Assembly (NCBI GenBank): GCA_025201805.1
Contig: MU619271.1
Span: 1,169 to 65,168 of the forward strand
DNA from: Parasitella parasitica NRRL 2501
Lineage: Eukaryota > Fungi > Mucoromycota
Length of the DNA: 64,000 nucleotides
Direction: 5' to 3'
Position 1 is the stretch's first letter, and each line of letters opens with the position of its first letter. The notes beneath the pieces are model-generated. The model was given only the letters and a program-made list of their open reading frames with translations. It searched no databases and was not told the DNA's origin. Position numbers and translations under genes: made by a program. Positions 12,227 to 61,186 of this stretch are shown here, piece by piece.

Positions 12227-12236
12227 NNNNNNNNNN
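12227..12236. other. Assembly gap (N run)
   Basis: N characters. Confidence 1.
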
Positions 12237-20320: not shown

Positions 20321-20460
20321 NNNNNNNNNNNNNNNNNNNNNNNNNNNNNNNNNNNNNNNNNNNNNNNNNNNNNNNNNNNNNNNNNNNNNNNNNNNNNNNN
20401 NNNNNNNNNNNNNNNNNNNNNNNNNNNNNNNNNNNNNNNNNNNNNNNNNNNNNNNNNNNN
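20321..20460. other. Assembly gap (N run)
   Basis: N characters flanked by T-tracts. Confidence 1.
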
Positions 20461-25859: not shown

Positions 25860-26503
25860 TTAGTTTTCATCTTCGACAACTTCGGTATTGAGACCTAGAG
25901 ACAAAGTTTGTTTGGTCAGTAAACTAGTCGCTTCACAGATAGGAGGACCAAGGTCATTAGACAACTTGGCATATTTATACTCCAACCTCTTGCGCTCACT
26001 AACTGGCCGGAAATTCATGTTTGCAAGAGCTTATTCTTGACCAGAATAAAAACCCTCAGTTTAAACATAAATTACGCGGAATCGCAGTGGGATAGATTGC
26101 CAAGGAGATGTAAACTAATAGAAATAGAGAAAAAAACCCTCCCCCCCCCTCCTCTTCTCCACTTACCCTTAAAGTCAACAGTAGGCACAAATGTAACATA
26201 CGAATAGAGCTTTTCTTTGGCATCTTCATCGTCGTTACGCTTGCGGGCAATACGGACACGAATACGGTGGTCAGAATGCTTTACACCACGAGACCAGATA
26301 GCCTTGTTCAATGAGGGGTCAAGACGCACGTCTTTGGTACCCATAGCCTTCTGGGCAAAAGCCTTGACGGCCTTGATGGCATGGGGAGAACGCTTTCTCA
26401 AAGAGCGACCAAAGACATGCTTGTGCAAGTGGATGGTGTATTCACGAGTGACAACATCAGCAAGAGTGGAACGCTTTTGAGGGGTAGCAGTAGACTTGGC
26501 CAT
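25860..26503 (-). CDS. RPL31: 60S ribosomal protein L31 (eL31); exons 26503-26167 and 25894-25860
   Basis: [13 protein letters not shown]...[16 protein letters not shown]...[15 protein letters not shown]. Splicing gives the expected end FKG|[10 protein letters not shown]. Confidence 0.97.
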
Positions 26504-27143
26504 TTCAAGAGTATAATGGATGGATGGATGGATTGCCTCGGTATAGGAATAAAAGAGAGTGAGAGACGAGACTCTACTTGCTCACTCCAAACTATTTCAC
26601 CGTTTCAACTGGTGTTGAAATGTTGGTTGCGGCGGCGGTGGTGGTGGTCGTAGCACTGATACTAGCAGCCTTGGAAATCAAGGCCCTTGGTATTGTGTTC
26701 TTCAAATTAGGGTTATTGAGAGAAAGCTTAAATCTGCTCTTTAGGCAGGTTTAAAAAAGAAATACGCCCAGCTACTATGGCCAGCACTAGAAATCAGCTG
26801 CATTTACTGTATTAAAATTACTTGTTGAGCAGAAAGGCATACGCCCATTGCAGCTGCTTATGGTGCTTGCTTGCCGCTCGCAAAGCAAGGCGAAATTAGC
26901 CCTCATCTGGATCCAACCTCCAAAATATTGTAGAAACGACACGCCAAGTGGCTTGATTCAATGGCACATAGGCTGCCCATTGGTATACAAGGATGGTTGA
27001 TTAGCGCATCATCTTTTATCATTGGCCCCTTCTAGGCGTGTCCCAGAAACGCCAAAATTTTGAATCATCTCTGTTTGCACAAGTTTGTGACCCTTCTTGT
27101 GGGCCTTTCTTTTTTTTGCTTTTATTTCACTCTACTTTTCTGC

Positions 27144-31183: not shown

Positions 31184-31318
31184 NNNNNNNNNNNNNNNNN
31201 NNNNNNNNNNNNNNNNNNNNNNNNNNNNNNNNNNNNNNNNNNNNNNNNNNNNNNNNNNNNNNNNNNNNNNNNNNNNNNNNNNNNNNNNNNNNNNNNNNNN
31301 NNNNNNNNNNNNNNNNNN
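31184..31318. other. Assembly gap (N run)
   Basis: N characters; probably hides the 5' end of ATG26. Confidence 1.
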
Positions 31319-54067: not shown

Positions 54068-54872
54068 CTATAACTCTCGCTTGATGTACTTCATAGTCTC
54101 TATATCAACGACAATTTTGTCGCCTTCGTTCACAAATTCAGGCACTTGTAATTTAGCACCATTGGCTAAATTGGCAGTTTTGTAAACGGTTCCCTTTGCA
54201 GCTTGACCCGCCCGATCTACTACAGATAGAACTGTATAGGTATAAGTCGAAGGTAACTTAAATATACAGGGCTGCCTTCCATGCTCTGGTGTAGTCAAGA
54301 AGCTGACAGAAATAGGCATGGAATCTAAACAATATAGGTGAATAACTTGGCCTATTCCAACGATGAACAAGCCCACGCATACCTTCCAACATGCCAATTG
54401 ATCGATCTCCTCCTTCACACTTGGAGCTTGCCATTTCAATCTCTTCAAATGTTTCTAAATTCAACAGATGAACTTTATCGCTTTCAGAATATAAATATTG
54501 GTATTGTTCATCCGCCAAATTCAATACTATTCACATACAAAAGAAGATTTTAGCCAACACGTAGACATTTAAATGATACTAATTCCACTTACTCTCTAGT
54601 GAATCTCCAGACTTGAAGCGCTCGTTAATTTTTGCTGATGATAAGATATCTTGCAGCTCCATCTTGACAACAGCTCCACCTCTCCCTGTAGAGACATGGT
54701 CTCTCGTTAAAACTTTCCAAGGTTTATCTTTGAATTGGACAATTTGCCCTTTTTTGATAGAGCCAACACTGAGCTTATAGAATCTCTTGGCTAATACAAC
54801 CGTTCCACGGGGCAAAATATGTGGCCAACGCACAGAGGCTTGCCTAGCTAATGCGAGCAAGGTAAATGACAT
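54068..54872 (-). CDS. efp: Bacterial-type elongation factor P with a predicted mitochondrial presequence (exons 54872-54593, 54526-54383, 54324-54068)
   Basis: IKKGQIV...PWKVL..DHVSTGRGGAVVKMELQDI...NERFKSGD (KOW), YQYLY...LNLETFEEI (OB), KTANLANGAKLQVPEFVNEGDKIVVDIETMKYIKR (C-terminal domain). The N-terminal ~30 aa are Arg-rich with no acidic residues. Confidence 0.9.
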
Positions 54873-55037
54873 TGTATGAGTCAGCTAATGTCCAAATAAA
54901 AACACTACATTGCATTAATTCCAAGGGGCACCAATAACATCTTCTAAGCCACTGGTGTTAACACTTCATCTCCTACTAAATCTCGAACGAACAAAAAAGT
55001 GCTGCTCTTTTCATTCTAACTCTCTCTGTTTGGAAAA

Positions 55038-56525
55038 ATGGCTGATTTAAGTAAAGACATTACAAATTTAAGGTTGGAAGGAGAAGCTATCAAAGTCGCT
55101 CCCGCTGAAGCTGCCAACAATGCCTCACAAAATGTCACTCCTTGGGATGTAGAAGGTGCTATCGTCGACGGTGTTCAACAAGCTATCGATTACAGCAAGC
55201 TCATAGAGCAATTCGGCACTAGACATATTGATGATGAGCTATTGAAACGCTTCGAAACGCTGACTGGTCGTAAACCTCATATTTTCCTGCGAAGGGGTAC
55301 CTTTTTCTCTCACAGGTACGTACGCCAAACTTGTAATCAGCTGCATTGAATTGAACGCGCCCGACATGGTAGAGAGTTTGACAAGATTCTTGATCGTTAC
55401 GAGCAAAAGAAGCCCTTCTTTTTGTACACTGGCCGTGGTCCGTCTAGTGCATCTATGCATTTGGGACATATGATCCCTTTTATTTTCTGTCAGTAAGTTG
55501 TTTCGAGACGAGTGTATTGGCCATGGATTGAACGCTTCAATATAGGTGGTTGCAAGATGTTTTTGATGTGCCCATTGTTATTCAATTGACTGACGATGAG
55601 AAATTCTTGTTCAAGCCCAATTTGACCGTTGAAATGTGTACTCAATTTGCTCTTGACAATGCTAGTGATATTATCGCTTGTGGTTTCAAGCCTGAAAAGA
55701 CTTTTATCTTTTCCAACTTTGATTTTGTCGGGTAAGATTGGAAAGGATTGCATTGAAGCTTGGAAAGTAACTATTGTATTACAGGAAAGAATTCTATCAC
55801 AATGTTGTCAGAATCTCTCGCTGCATTACTTTATCGCAATCAAAGGCCACGTTTGGCTTTGTGGACAGGTAAGTCGAACCATCGAAGGGCTCGGGTTTAA
55901 TCTCATGTCTGGAATGTATAGTGATAATGTCGGCAAAGCTCATTTCGTCTCTGTCCAAGCAGCACCCTCATTTTCCAACTCTTTCCCTCAAATCTTTGGC
56001 GACAAGAAGGATATTCCTTGTCTAATCCCTTGTGCTATTGATCAAGACCCTTACTTCCGTTTGACTCGTGATGTCGCAAAGAGATTGAAGTATCCCAAGC
56101 CATCTCTCATCCATGCCAAGTTTTTCCCTGCTCTTCAAGGTCCTCAGACCAAGATGAGTGCCTCCATTGACAGTTCCGCCATCTTTATGACGGACACTGC
56201 CAAACAAATCAAGAACAAGATCAACAAGCATGCCTTCTCTGGTGGTGGAGCTACTCTTGAAGAGCACCAAGCCAACGGTGGCAATCCCGATGTTGATGTT
56301 GCCTATCAATACCTCTCCTTCTTTTTGGAAGATGATGAAGAATTACAAAAGATTTATGACTCGTATAAATCAGGCACACTATCGACTGGTGAATTGAAGA
56401 AAACGTGTATTGAATTGTTACAAAAGTTTGTCAGTGATTTCCAAGATAGAAAAAGCAAGATTACGCCCCAGATTGTTGCCCAATATATGGACGCTACTAG
56501 AAAGATTGATGCTGGAATGAAATAA
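55038..56525 (+). CDS. WRS1: Tryptophanyl-tRNA synthetase, cytoplasmic type, multi-exon
   Basis: [56 protein letters not shown]. Confidence 0.97.
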
Positions 56526-56646: not shown

Positions 56647-58924
56647 ATGTCCATCAAAAGAACAAGCTCGAGGATACCTTCAGCTGCTTCCCATCGCAAC
56701 GACAATGCCTCTATATTTTCAACAAATGAATCAACAACTGGTAGTAGACAGCGTCAGTCAAAGAGAGATGAGGTATATATTACGCGGAATCACATATTTC
56801 AGTTACTGACTGCTTCCTGTCATAGGCCATCAGAAAGAAGCTAGAGTCAGAGCTATCCAAGAAGAAGACGGGATCAAAGAGAATTCGTCAGACTCGGAGG
56901 ATTGCAGGCACCGTATCAGCTCTTCGACCTGCTCAGGCGCTTACTGTAAAAGAAAACATGCTGGTTATTGAGGCATCGCAGCTGATGGCAGCAAAGAGGA
57001 GTGATTGTGTGCTTGTTGTGGACGAAGACGACCATTTAAGTGGCATTTTTACTGCCAAAGACATTGCCTATAGATTGGTTGCCGAGGCTCTGGATGCAAG
57101 GTATGTTGTATGGTTATGAAACCAAACAAACACATGGAAGCTAACATTTATTAACAGAAATACGGCAGTAGCCAATATCATGACTAAGGGCCCCATGTGT
57201 GTCACCTCTGACACATCTGCAACTGATGCTCTAAATCTTATGGTATCCCGTGGCTTCCGTCATTTGGTAAGCTTCGTTGATACGATGCATACACGCTTCC
57301 CATAAACAAGCGTTAACTAATGCTTCTCGACTACAGCCTGTTTGCAACGAGGAAGGTGACATCTTTGGATTGCTAGATATTACCAAATGTTTGTATGAGG
57401 CACTAGATAAAATGGAGAGAGCATTTGGTTCGTCCCGCAAACTGTACGATGCCTTGGAGGGCGTTGAAAAGGAATGGTCCAACTCACCTATACAGCTTGT
57501 GCAATACATGGAAGCCTTGCGTGATAAAATGGAATGCCCAGACCTGAATACTGTGCTAGACGGCTTACCGCCTGCTGAAGTCAACGTAAAGACAAATGTT
57601 CGTGATGTTGCACGTCTGATGAAAGAGTATCATACGACTGCAGTATTGGTTAAGGACAAGGATGGTCTGGCAGGCATCTTTACGACCAAGGACGTTGTGC
57701 TTCGTGTAATTGCTGCTGGTTTGAATCCAGAGACCTGCTCCGTTGTGCGGGTTATGACTCCCCATCCTGACACTGCACCTCCTCAAATGTCAATCATGGA
57801 TGCCTTGAGAAAGATGCATGGTGAGTATACGACGCCGCTCCGTTTGCAATGTACTCATTGCATTTTATACAGATGGTCATTACCTCAATCTTCCTGTTAT
57901 TGAGGACGGCGATGTTGTCGGCATGGTGGATGTTCTGAAATTGACATATGCCACCATGGAGCAAATCAATAGCATTCAGGGCAACGATGGCGAAGGGCCC
58001 ATGTGGGGTAGATTTTGGGACAGTTTTGGTGCTGCAGATCAACATGAGACCGAATCGCAAATTTCTGATCCATTGTCGTCTCAACTGCTCTCAGCTCATT
58101 CGCACAGCAGCAACGCAAATGGTAATGGAAATATCGCTTGTGCTATTTCTCCTGAACCTTCTGCCTCATTTTCGCAACTTCAGGGTTTCTCAGAAATCAC
58201 ACCTAACGAGTCCGCAAGCATGGTGGCCAACAATGAAGAAGGCCGTTCGACTATGTCGGACGATACCAGGGCGATGAGTAAAGGCGAGGATGTATTTTCG
58301 TTCAAATTCACAAGTGATGGCGGAAAGACACATCGGTTCGCATCTGTCTATAACAGCTATGTTGCACTCTTGGAAGCTGTGCGTCAGAAGGTCATTGGCG
58401 AGCATCTGGCTCATCTTGGAGCTAGTTCAGACGACGTTCCTGTGGATTCCTGGCTGAGCATTTCCTATTTGGATGATGAAGAAGACCAAGTGTTGATTAC
58501 ATCAGATTCAGATGTTTTTGACGCCGTCAAACTGGCTCGCAAAATGGGCCAAGATCGTGTCAAATTGTTTGTTCATGATGCCAGTAGAAAAGAAGAAGAG
58601 GTTGTAGAGGAGCCTGTTGTGATAGAAGAAAAGGCTGCTGAGCCAGTTACGCCTCCAGCCGTAACTGTGCCTCCTCCATCTGCTTCTCAAGTAAGTGAAT
58701 CAACTCGTCGTGAGAATAAGAGCAAGAGACGTAGCATCAAAAAGGAAGTTGAATCTTGTTCAGACTCTGACGAGGATGATGGTCGTAAAGGTCGCAACGA
58801 GCAAGAAGGTGCTACTGTTGCAGGAATTCCTCAGGAGCTGGTGCTGCCAGCAGCTATTGCGTTTTTGGGTGTTGTCATTGTTGGTGTGTTTGCTTTTTCA
58901 AGAGTCAGCTCACACCATCGTTAA
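56647..58924 (+). CDS. CBS-domain and PB1-domain protein with C-terminal TM (Mug70/CBSCBSPB-like), multi-exon
   Basis: RQRQSKRDEAIRKK, GTVSALRPA, two CBS pairs (GIFTAKDIA; GIFTTKDVVLRVIAAGL..SVVRVMTPHPD), PB1 (FSFKF...THRF...SYLDDEEDQVLITSDSD), and a C-terminal hydrophobic anchor. Confidence 0.9.
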
Positions 58925-59131: not shown

Positions 59132-59954
59132 TTATTTTTTTGATTCAATGGCATTACTATTGCCGGCTTTCTTCTTGGGTGGTGGGGGCGTCTTTTTCTT
59201 CTTCTTCTTCATTGCTAAAGGATTTATGCCACTCACTTTTCTCTTTTTTTGGGGCTGCGGTCTATGGGATTCCGCTTTCTTTTCCCCCTCTTCATTGGCA
59301 AACAAGGCTCTTTTGATCCGCAAGGTATCTTTGTCTAATGGCTTTACTTTTTCCGCTTCGTGGACTTTCATCATTAGTTTTGATTTATCAGTCATTGGTT
59401 CAAGGCCAAGGCCCTGTTGCTTGACATTGACATAGATGATTGGCACGCCAGGAATCTTTCGCATGCGATCTTTCAGTTTAGGGTTTTGGGTGGCAATACA
59501 AAAATGCTGCTTATTTTCGGCACCCACTAAATCTCGGATACACTGGTAGCTGGAAACGGGGTTGTCTTTGTGTGGACAGCGTCGAGAGTCTGATTTTTTG
59601 GCTAAAATATAGGCACTAGTGAAATCATGGCCCTTTGATTTGATATCTTGCAAAATGCATTCGGTTACAACTATACTGAGCAAATTAGCAAGGCAGGTAC
59701 ATGTCAATAACTCAAGCCTCTGGTACCTAAACGAGTAACGTCCCCCATTAGGTTGGGAAGTTCATCTTTGATGTAAACTTGCTTTTCTAAAGCCGCTTTG
59801 CAAAAATCACCGTCCACTAAATTCAAATGTCAGTATCCTTGGATACGTCAATTGCTCTACAGAACGTACTTAAAATTTGATATGGGGGCCTAAATCCAAA
59901 CCCTACCGTATAAGCATGTACTGTTTTCTTGTTTGATCTGGAAGCTTTAGTCAT
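59132..59954 (-). CDS. UTP23: rRNA-processing PIN-domain protein Utp23 (Fcf1 family), 3 exons
   Basis: YTVGFGFRPPYQIL|xDGDF, VTECIL, RRCPH...CI...NKQHFCIATQN..L...MRKIPGVPIIY, and C-terminal GINPLAMKKKK. Confidence 0.88.
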
Positions 59955-60142
59955 ATTGACGTTCAATTGCGAGAAAGAAGTAAAAGAAAGACATCATGGA
60001 AATTTTTTTCAGGTGAGGGTTATGTGACTTTTAGGGAAGAGGTTTGCATGCTGCTGGGGATCAAAAGGTGAATGGAGGAGCATCTTCTGTCAAGGGGCCT
60101 GTAAGTAAAAAAAAACACATCTCTTCCTATTACCTTATCAAT

Positions 60143-61186
60143 ATGTCTAATCTATTGAAATTTGCTCGTATTTTACCTGCAAATGCGGTTATGGGTCTGA
60201 CTCGCCGTCAGATGGCACCCTCCATGCTTCAAATATCTTCCAAACGATTTGCCAGCAACTACCATCAACATCAGCATCATCAGCAACAGCAGCAGCAGCA
60301 AGATGACATTCTTCAATATAGGGAAAAGCCAGAATCATTATCCTATTTTACCGGCAACTTTAAATACAATGATCTTTTGATCGAGCTCGATGCACTCTAC
60401 AAGACATTCGAAAATTGGAAGCCCACTGATCACATCCAAGTTGATGGCTCTGGACATGTCACTCATGACAAGGTGTATTCGTGGAAATTGCGTGACAAAA
60501 TGTCAGAGTTACTCAGCATTCCTCTAACCACATCACAATGGAGAAAGATTACAGCTCATCTCAACACCCTTGCTTCTCTTCCCAAGCCATTACCTGCTTC
60601 TGTAGAGAGCATTTTAGAGTCCTATCAAAGATTTGATGCTTCAATTCAAAGCAGCGGGGAAACCAAGTCTCGCACCTTGGATGAAATGGGCCGTGCTTAT
60701 GCGGTTGGTCGTAGAAAGGAGTCTAGCGCCAGATGCTATCTTGTTGAAGGCGAGGGTAAGGTGCTTGTCAACGGCTTGGATTTGGAACAGTACTTTCAGA
60801 GATCTGTCGATAGAAGCGAAGTTACTTTGCCCTTGGATGTGACAGAATTAAAAGATAAATTCAATGCTTGGATTCTTGTGAAGGGTGGTGGAAGCACTGG
60901 TAAGTGGATTATGTCTGATCAAGTGCAGGCAACTGATTTGTCTTGCTGTTAGGCCAAGCACAGGCTATCAAATTGGGCCTTGGTAAAGCCTTATTAATTC
61001 ATAACAATGAATTAAAGCCTGCTTTGCGTAAAGGTGAGTAGTACTGCAATATGCAAAGTTCACATGGATCAGAATTGATGTATTTTTTTTATAGCTGGTT
61101 GTATAACTCGAGATCCCAGAGTTGTTGAACGTAAGAAAGAAGGTCAAAGAAAGGCTCGTGCAAAGTATACCTGGGTCAAACGTTAG
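60143..61186 (+). CDS. MRPS9: Mitochondrial ribosomal protein uS9m, 3 exons
   Basis: Presequence, SYFTGN, GRRKESSAR..LVEGEGKVLVNG, VKGGGSTGQAQAI, TRDPRVVERKKEGQRKARAKYTWVKR. Confidence 0.95.

Follow-up and report, generated by a model that had tools for sequence, protein, structure and literature searches.

The EF-P gene and its genomic setting

The window analysed here, the whole stretch of 64,000 nucleotides of contig MU619271.1 from the mucoralean fungus Parasitella parasitica NRRL 2501, carries on its minus strand a gene for an elongation factor P (EF-P), which runs from an ATG at 54872 to a TAG ending at 54068 (coordinates exact). Its coding sequence of 681 nt specifies 226 amino acids, contains no internal stops and is interrupted by two GT..AG introns. 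Exon 1 (54593..54872) encodes a predicted presequence and the KOW-like domain I, residues 1–93 (PF08207, 61.8 bits against a cut-off of 23). It is followed by intron 1 (54527..54592; 66 nt, GTAAGT..TAG), by exon 2 (54383..54526) with the OB domain II, residues 94–141 (PF01132, 28.1–28.9 bits against a cut-off of 27), by intron 2 (54325..54382; 58 nt, GTATGC..TAG) and by exon 3 (54068..54324), which holds the end of domain II, the OB domain III with residues Y221 and R224, and the stop codon (PF09285, 55.2 bits against a cut-off of 25), all on the minus strand.

The gene is real, spliced and expressed. Its spliced model is identical to a P. parasitica protein that NCBI names “hypothetical protein” (P0001), and a 2079-nt contig of run X7 omits precisely 58 and 66 nt, with a splice joint at each intron that confirms the end of exon 1 and the limits of exon 2. 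Expression was judged from this single run, which is probably RNA, a nature assigned to it by guess only. Contigs of three DNA runs retain both introns, and six exon fragments from other samples start or stop at query residue 93/94, the boundary of intron 1. The initial annotation of an intact three-domain EF-P with two spliceosomal introns is thus borne out by the coding sequence, the identity with P0001, the X7 joints and the Pfam matches. Single-intron gene models were discarded: all ten open models lack domain II, and it is the two-intron model that agrees with P0001 and with the joints in the contig. We likewise rejected contamination and a bacterial insert. The window is ordinary intron-bearing eukaryotic DNA (RasGAP, ArfGAP, bromodomain, PMT and L31e genes), and since the neighbours of the EF-P gene are ordinary eukaryotic genes, the gene is not a bacterial insert; the EF-P stretch is also in one piece in three DNA runs (any of which may be where the window itself came from), which counts against contamination. 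Runs of N in the window (12227–12236, 20321–20460 and 31184–31318; 285 bases in total) are not close to the EF-P gene.

A tryptophanyl-tRNA-synthetase-like gene (PF00579; ATG at 55038) lies head to head with the EF-P gene across an unstranded spacer of 165 bp (54873..55037). A single X7 contig spans both gene starts and omits the first intron of the neighbour (57 nt), which does not imply a single transcript. The spacer is likely to be a compact bidirectional promoter that serves these two translation genes. The window also contains further genes connected with the ribosome, which encode an Fcf1-family rRNA-processing protein (59132–59761, minus strand), a ribosomal S9 protein whose N-terminal part is long and which may be the mitochondrial form (60035–60952, plus strand), and the cytosolic L31e (26072–26581, minus strand); their proximity is probably due to chance. 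The product of a multi-exon gene at 57271–58924 (plus strand) combines CBS and PB1 domains with a C-terminal stretch that is hydrophobic.

Domain architecture, fold and tip loop

All three Pfam domains of EF-P (PF08207, PF01132 and PF09285) score above their cut-offs. The AlphaFold model has a mean pLDDT of 83.9, with residues 1–30 below 50, and its best PDB match is Thermus EF-P (1ueb; E 1e-15, target TM 0.90, rmsd 2.3). The bacterial model TIGR00038 (NCBIfam efp equivalog) is the best-scoring family at 138.1 bits, yet this is below its cut-off of 185.8. The factors eIF5A and aIF5A possess two domains only, with a hypusine Lys; the Parasitella protein has a domain III and an Arg at the tip, and reaches 26.6 bits with the eIF5A/aIF5A models against cut-offs of 75–138.

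The β3–β4 loop reads HVSTGRGGA (residues 59–67; 54672..54698, minus strand) instead of the canonical HVKPGKG, exactly as first annotated, with Arg64 at its tip (codon 54683–54681). In the alignment, Arg64 corresponds to K34 of E. coli EF-P, G63 to G33 and T62 to P32. Both G63 and R64 are found in all 33 named fungal proteins and P32 in none of the 33. In domain III, Y221 corresponds to E. coli Y183 and is kept in 32/33 fungal proteins, while R224 corresponds to R186 and is kept in 31/33; the contact role of Tyr183 and Arg186 is taken from PMC11611912. Judged by its domains, its fold, the Gly-basic residue pair at its tip and the Tyr/Arg contacts, the protein is a bacterial-type EF-P, and relief of polyproline stalling is its predicted activity.

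The E-site-codon residues D145/T146 are replaced in the query by Q182-A183-A184, and D145 is also missing in the alphaproteobacterial rows (G-Q-T). This codon contact has been described as a lesser determinant, and its replacement may loosen codon preference. The changed codon contacts would also suit a mitochondrial, endosymbiont-derived EF-P whose job has shifted to first-peptide-bond formation, general elongation or mitoribosome assembly, leaving polyproline to TACO1. That factor resolves polyproline stalls in human mitochondria, the predicted mitoproteome of Andalucia godoyi contains both EF-P and TACO1 (PMC7050145, in part), and bacterial EF-P also recognises initiator tRNA. A shifted job nevertheless appears unlikely to us: the tip Arg, G63, E93, Y221 and R224 are conserved across fungi, as ordinary binding to E-site and P-site tRNA predicts.

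Predicted mitochondrial targeting

Residues 1–32 (54777..54872, minus strand) form a predicted mitochondrial presequence that ends in R30-F31-Y32 directly before the mature domain. The extension includes four Arg and one Lys and has no Asp or Glu, in agreement with the Arg-rich extension of the initial annotation. The amphipathic character claimed alongside did not hold up in a simple test: the best 11-residue hydrophobic moment, 0.54, was equalled by 60% of 300 shuffles (p 0.60), and the moment gave p < 0.05 in 1/29 extensions tested.

Among the 33 named fungal proteins that have a KOW domain, 28 carry an extension of at least 15 amino acids. The motif R-x-[YFLIMV] closes 27 of these 28 where the mature domain begins in the alignment (shuffling predicts 1.4), and the net charge is at least +2 in all 28, with acidic residues making up 1.3% of the extensions vs 14% of the core. 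Compared with the query, the extensions of Mucorales orthologs are about 29% identical and the cores 75%. Under the R-3 rule, MPP cleavage is followed by Icp55 trimming. An acid-poor, fast-evolving extension with an R-3 end thus matches the picture of a cleavable mitochondrial presequence, through which EF-P is probably mitochondrial.

A cytosolic or vestigial EF-P would be compatible with the negative amphipathicity test and with the fact that targeting is predicted. We regard it as extremely unlikely, given the acid-poor and fast-evolving extension with its cleavage-motif end in 27/28 proteins and an intact, spliced gene whose conservation extends over four phyla. In addition, M71 is the first Met after residue 1, so that no shorter ATG form with the whole KOW domain is available, and the Acanthamoeba counterpart was detected in mitochondria by mass spectrometry (PMC4500093, in part).

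Seventeen NCBI models of Mucorales and Umbelopsis orthologs (P0019–P0035; 147–158 amino acids) lack the KOW domain and the presequence. They mostly start at the Met equivalent to M71, and several fragments break immediately behind K70. This suggests that other species have an additional intron at that point and that the annotations of these seventeen models missed a first exon.

Distribution in fungi and other eukaryotes

A search with exon 1 retrieved 11 full-length Mucorales proteins among 191 candidates. A profile of these 11 gave 174 matches among 4854 candidates, of which the 120 listed added Umbelopsis, Syncephalis and two chytrids. Profile searching of 1.84 billion representatives produced 3953 matches; 150 of them were listed, 30 of these were looked up, and 18 had an organism name. 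The fungi named among the 30 were Bifiguratus, Mortierella, Acaulospora, Basidiobolus, Coemansia, Dispira, Neoconidiobolus, Ramicandelaber, Allomyces, Phlyctochytrium, Geranomyces and Caulochytrium, and the other eukaryotes were Diphylleia, Chlorokybus, Cyanophora, Erythranthe and Goniomonas, with one cluster containing both Diacronema and Picocystis. Together with the looked-up genera, the named orthologs overall comprise Mucorales, Umbelopsidales and Syncephalis, and they include five chytrids in all. By these orthologs, four phyla of early-diverging fungi share the EF-P gene, namely the Mucoromycota, Zoopagomycota, Blastocladiomycota and Chytridiomycota. A homolog search from Basidiobolus returned three matches, none of them new. 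No ascomycete, basidiomycete or animal was among the 18 named of the 30 looked-up matches (150 listed), which fits a loss in the ascomycete, basidiomycete and animal lines. The closest Atlas clusters are 94–100% eukaryotic, mostly plants and green algae. Several of the fungal orthologs are already called “Elongation factor P” in UniRef.

One of the closest counterparts is the mitochondrial EF-P of Acanthamoeba castellanii (N378, XP_004334345.1), which was identified as mitochondrial by mass spectrometry in 2014 with an ion score of 172, six redundant peptides and a TargetP value of 0.95; its ortholog row gives Arabidopsis AT4G26310 alone, and the protein is catalogued only (PMC4500093). Like the fungal protein, it is nuclear-encoded; read by eye, its presequence ends R-x-Y just ahead of the KOW domain and its loop is of the Arg type, with no P32. 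It differs in its TAQR-type loop, compared with TGRGG in fungi, and in an acidic C-terminal tail of its own. The Acanthamoeba protein is absent from our trees, and it is a probable ortholog by way of the similar protein P0200. The EF-P of A. godoyi is also nuclear-encoded and predicted to be mitochondrial, with an Arg at the loop tip (PMC7050145, in part). Plasmodium PF3D7_0913400 is a further nuclear-encoded, predicted mitochondrial EF-P (PMC8550323, in part); it has no domain III, whereas the fungal EF-P has all three domains. The Parasitella gene agrees with the mitochondrial kind of EF-P in being a spliced nuclear gene with a basic, acid-free extension of R-3 type, and in grouping with eukaryotic EF-Ps; detection in mitochondria, by mass spectrometry, is on record for the Acanthamoeba protein only.

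Ancestry of the fungal EF-P

Bacterial EF-Ps were drawn from the best 30 of 151 Pseudomonadota genomes, 13 annotated plasmid records and 71 motif-matched genome loci; the last were picked by two motifs, have no alphaproteobacterium in their titles and were used as an outgroup source only. Three alphaproteobacteria are named; the class of the other alphaproteobacterial-type sequences is presumed from clustering and, for L076, from an efp-suhB gene order as in Sphingomonas. Trees were built on subsets of 81, 50 and 168 rows from an alignment of 176 columns. The 50-row set received a full search with the loop columns removed. One 81-row tree kept the loop and the other, a quick tree with a mixture model, had it removed, and the 168-row tree was quick.

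In the 50-row tree, the fungi form a clade (SH-aLRT 99.1/UFBoot 100), fungi, other eukaryotes and the alphaproteobacterial-type side group together (94.7/99), and this combined side plus a neighbouring group is supported at 98.4/100. The 81-row trees contain the same split of alphaproteobacterial-type and eukaryotic sequences, and the 168-row quick tree places a 65-row eukaryote-like clade (96) inside a 119-row side of alphaproteobacterial-type and eukaryotic rows (99). The best 50-row tree has no split that unites all eukaryotes, a grouping that was not rejected (AU p 0.59).

The alphaproteobacterial EF-Ps are the closest bacterial side in all free trees and share with the fungi an ERF stretch in domain I and a domain III loop of the GQ type rather than the GDT type. 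They differ in their PGKG Lys loop with P32, against an Arg without Pro in fungi, in an identity of about 26–30%, and in having neither presequence nor introns; in Sinorhizobium and Paracoccus, the EpmA gene adjoins. By E-value, the best match in the plasmid collection was a Sphingomonas efp (104 bits), the next reaching 85 bits among the 60 of 84 records listed. With the fungal profile, the best 30 of 151 Pseudomonadota genomes, picked by top score, reached 136–167 bits, and all 30 have a PGKG loop; EarP-type EF-Ps scored 83–98 bits, EfpL 98 and GRGGA-type bacteria 100–136.

These scores bear on the alternative of horizontal gain, by which an early fungus took the gene from an Arg-type bacterium and added introns and presequence later. 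The donors considered were EarP-type Burkholderiaceae (for example, fungal endosymbionts), Patescibacteria and bacteria with EfpL. A horizontal origin would account for a GRGGA loop common to Patescibacteria, Margulisbacteria, Dehalococcoidia and Thermus. However, the fungal profile favours the Pseudomonadota genomes over the EarP-type, EfpL and GRGGA-type sequences, and the Arg loop is also found in plant and protist homologs. AU tests on the 50-row set, where the free search ran longer than the constrained ones and rejection was thereby favoured, rejected a union of fungi with EarP-type EF-Ps (p 0.030) and with Patescibacteria (p 0.002). Even in those two constrained trees, the next relatives of the fungi are still other eukaryotes. 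The same set did not reject fungi with EfpL (p 0.18) or fungi outside the side of alphaproteobacterial-type and eukaryotic rows (p 0.25). Nothing was rejected on the 81-row quick trees (p 0.093 and 0.40; EarP-type p 0.40), where two constrained trees outscored the free tree; these tests are uninformative because the free search was sub-optimal.

With 176 columns only, the ancestry tests are weak, and endosymbiotic descent from the alphaproteobacterial ancestor of mitochondria is the best-supported origin, not one proven by so short an alignment. We consider horizontal gain very unlikely. The choice originally left between an endosymbiont-derived and a horizontally acquired factor therefore leans towards an endosymbiont-derived nuclear gene, probably mitochondrial, with loop type and trees disfavouring transfer. 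The phylogeny that had been proposed as a check places the fungi on the alphaproteobacterial side with plant and protist EF-Ps (94.7/99), tempered by the p of 0.25 for fungi placed outside it.

The arginine loop and its modification state

Within the eukaryote-like clade of the 168-row tree, a group of 11 rows has mostly PGKG Lys loops, and Arg loops prevail among the other 54 rows, which comprise fungi, plants, Cyanophora, Goniomonas and others. The switch from Lys to Arg therefore likely occurred inside eukaryotes, once or several times. Six proteins of the eukaryote-like clade (P0140, P0199, P0226, P0233, P0234 and P0241) combine presequence-like extensions with a PGKG Lys loop. The 50-row tree places P0140 as sister to the fungi (93.4/94); the 168-row tree does not. 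Lys-loop proteins of the P0140 type may belong to eukaryotes that retained the ancestral loop. Another set of homologs (most of L004–L071, and L011, L015, P0192 and P0248) has unusual bacterial EF-P loops. An ITPGRWKA loop, in which the tip is Arg and the Pro is kept, occurs in genomes labelled Aminicenantes/Acidobacteriota, a TPGNLRA loop with an Asn tip in Gemmatimonadota, and an HVGGRGGA loop, one residue longer, in two proteins near the alphaproteobacterial side.

The fungal combination of an Arg tip without P32 fits a rule for bacteria, in which Arg tips occur without P32 (PMC6544042, in part). GRGG-type loops are also present in plant and protist homologs and in Thermus, Patescibacteria, Dehalococcoidia and Margulisbacteria, and Thermus thermophilus EF-P (PDB 1ueb, 4v6a) matches the fungal protein in the GRGGA motif, in loop length and as its best structural counterpart. 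The Patescibacteria GRGGA group branches apart from the fungi (AU p 0.002; Thermus itself was left out of the trees), so the likeness of the GRGGA loops is likely convergent.

EarP-rhamnosylated EF-Ps likewise have an Arg tip and no P32. Their loop, however, is SGRN or SGRS, with earP adjacent in L054, where the fungal loop is TGRGGA. The early hint at EarP loses ground on this difference (GRGG, not SGRN) and on the AU test of the 50-row set (p 0.030), though the 81-row quick trees gave p 0.40. The three EarP clusters shown in the Atlas are 100% bacterial (few records), and neither EarP nor another modifying gene was found among the 42 ORF frames scanned in the window. Rhamnosylation of Arg64 appears highly doubtful. 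EfpL/YeiP also has an Arg tip and lacks P32; its nine-residue loop is two residues longer, with a Pro three residues upstream of the Arg, and the fungal loop has neither feature. The query scores 72 bits with the EfpL model against a cut-off of 216.

On balance, we lean towards an unmodified Arg64, because P32 is missing in 33/33 fungal proteins, because the unmodified K34R variant of E. coli EF-P retains about 20% of its activity, and because K81 is basic in all of them. K81 matches, by offset, a “position 50” at which a positive charge aids unmodified EF-Ps (bioRxiv 10.1101/2023.09.18.558224, in part), and is K or R in 33/33 fungal proteins. Of eight unmodified EF-Ps tested in E. coli, only one worked.

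A possible but less probable alternative is that Arg64 carries a modification. The loop has the canonical length, neither lengthened as in the unmodified EfpL nor braced by Pro as in the PGKGP types, whose Lys is flanked by two prolines (the query has an Arg and no Pro). Since the loop is without either known built-in substitute for modification, and since EarP-type EF-P is inhibitory when unmodified, a modification may be required. The protein would then be the same mitochondrial EF-P, one step apart from our preferred reading, with an Arg64 that depends on a eukaryotic enzyme and is, for example, methylated. The GRGG sequence resembles the targets of arginine methyltransferases, and G63 and R64 are invariant (33/33). 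In about half of bacterial genomes the modification of EF-P is not established, and Arg-type EF-Ps without an assigned modification are reported for Thermotogota (PMC11388002, in part). An enzyme-dependent Arg64 of this kind seems to us conceivable rather than probable, as the residues flanking G-R vary widely among fungi and protists, which fits loose constraint, and as the scan of the 42 window frames turned up no modifying gene. A wider and rather unlikely version would give the last eukaryotic common ancestor (LECA) a mitochondrion with both EF-P and TACO1 for polyproline rescue, with the Arg loop of fungi, plants and several protist lines, derived from the alphaproteobacterial Lys type, activated by a new eukaryotic arginine modification. 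If true, this would constitute a new EF-P activation chemistry inside mitochondria.

A probable mitochondrial elongation factor in early-diverging fungi

The reading that we consider likely is that of an endosymbiont-derived mitochondrial elongation factor retained in early-diverging fungi, which would ease proline stalls with an Arg64 that is itself slightly more likely unmodified than not. The protein would be imported by the presequence pathway, cut by MPP after R30-F31 and trimmed of Y32 by an Icp55-type activity, yielding a mature protein of about 194 amino acids. It would bind the E site as in bacteria, with Y221 and R224 touching the P-site tRNA as well as the rRNA of the small subunit, and with Arg64 holding the tRNA's CCA end steady. 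Its likely substrates are PP motifs in Cox1 and Cox3, motifs that even yeast mtDNA has kept (PMC11381339, in part), and its work may lie beside or overlap with that of TACO1. TACO1/YebC is the known mitochondrial polyproline-rescue factor and would meet the same problem in the same organelle as the fungal EF-P, whose role is predicted; the two differ in their unrelated folds and in that TACO1/YebC binds beside the A site and EF-P in the E site. The ancestral PGKG Lys loop may have become an xGRG Arg loop after the bacterial beta-lysylation enzymes were left behind, and EF-P would have been lost in the lines leading to yeast and humans.

EF-P is said to be absent from mitochondria in a NAR paper of 2024, a Nature Communications paper of 2026 and a NAR review of 2026 (PMC11381339, PMC12996406 and PMC12856214), which base the argument for TACO1 on this absence. 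That mitochondria are without EF-P seems true of humans and yeast, but not of eukaryotes in general. Three mitoproteome papers, on Acanthamoeba (2026), diplonemids (2025) and Babesia (2026), do not mention EF-P in their main text, and four supplements of the Acanthamoeba paper do not name it; a term search of PMC13632651 and PMC13673260 gave no match. Our literature search, over the text of mostly freely available papers, turned up neither a study of a fungal EF-P nor functional work on any mitochondrial EF-P; the supplementary tables of plant mitoproteomes may well list EF-P.

The novelty is lower than the initial annotation implied, given the occurrence in four fungal phyla, the UniRef names and the detection in Acanthamoeba in 2014. 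Mitochondrial EF-P has stood in protist proteome tables since that year, and the Parasitella gene is neither a one-off nor a new system. The fungal EF-P is instead a member of a catalogued, little-studied kind, the mitochondrial EF-P, of whose fungal branch we found no description. The early-diverging fungi, the nearest large outgroup to yeast, appear to have retained a complete EF-P with a predicted mitochondrial presequence. The Mucorales include laboratory-tractable species, so both the division of work between EF-P and TACO1 on one mitoribosome and the activation of GRGG Arg-type EF-Ps should be testable in them. The fungal EF-P would also allow a comparison that tests why the factor was dispensable in yeast and animals, and it runs counter to a general statement that the current literature on translation repeats.
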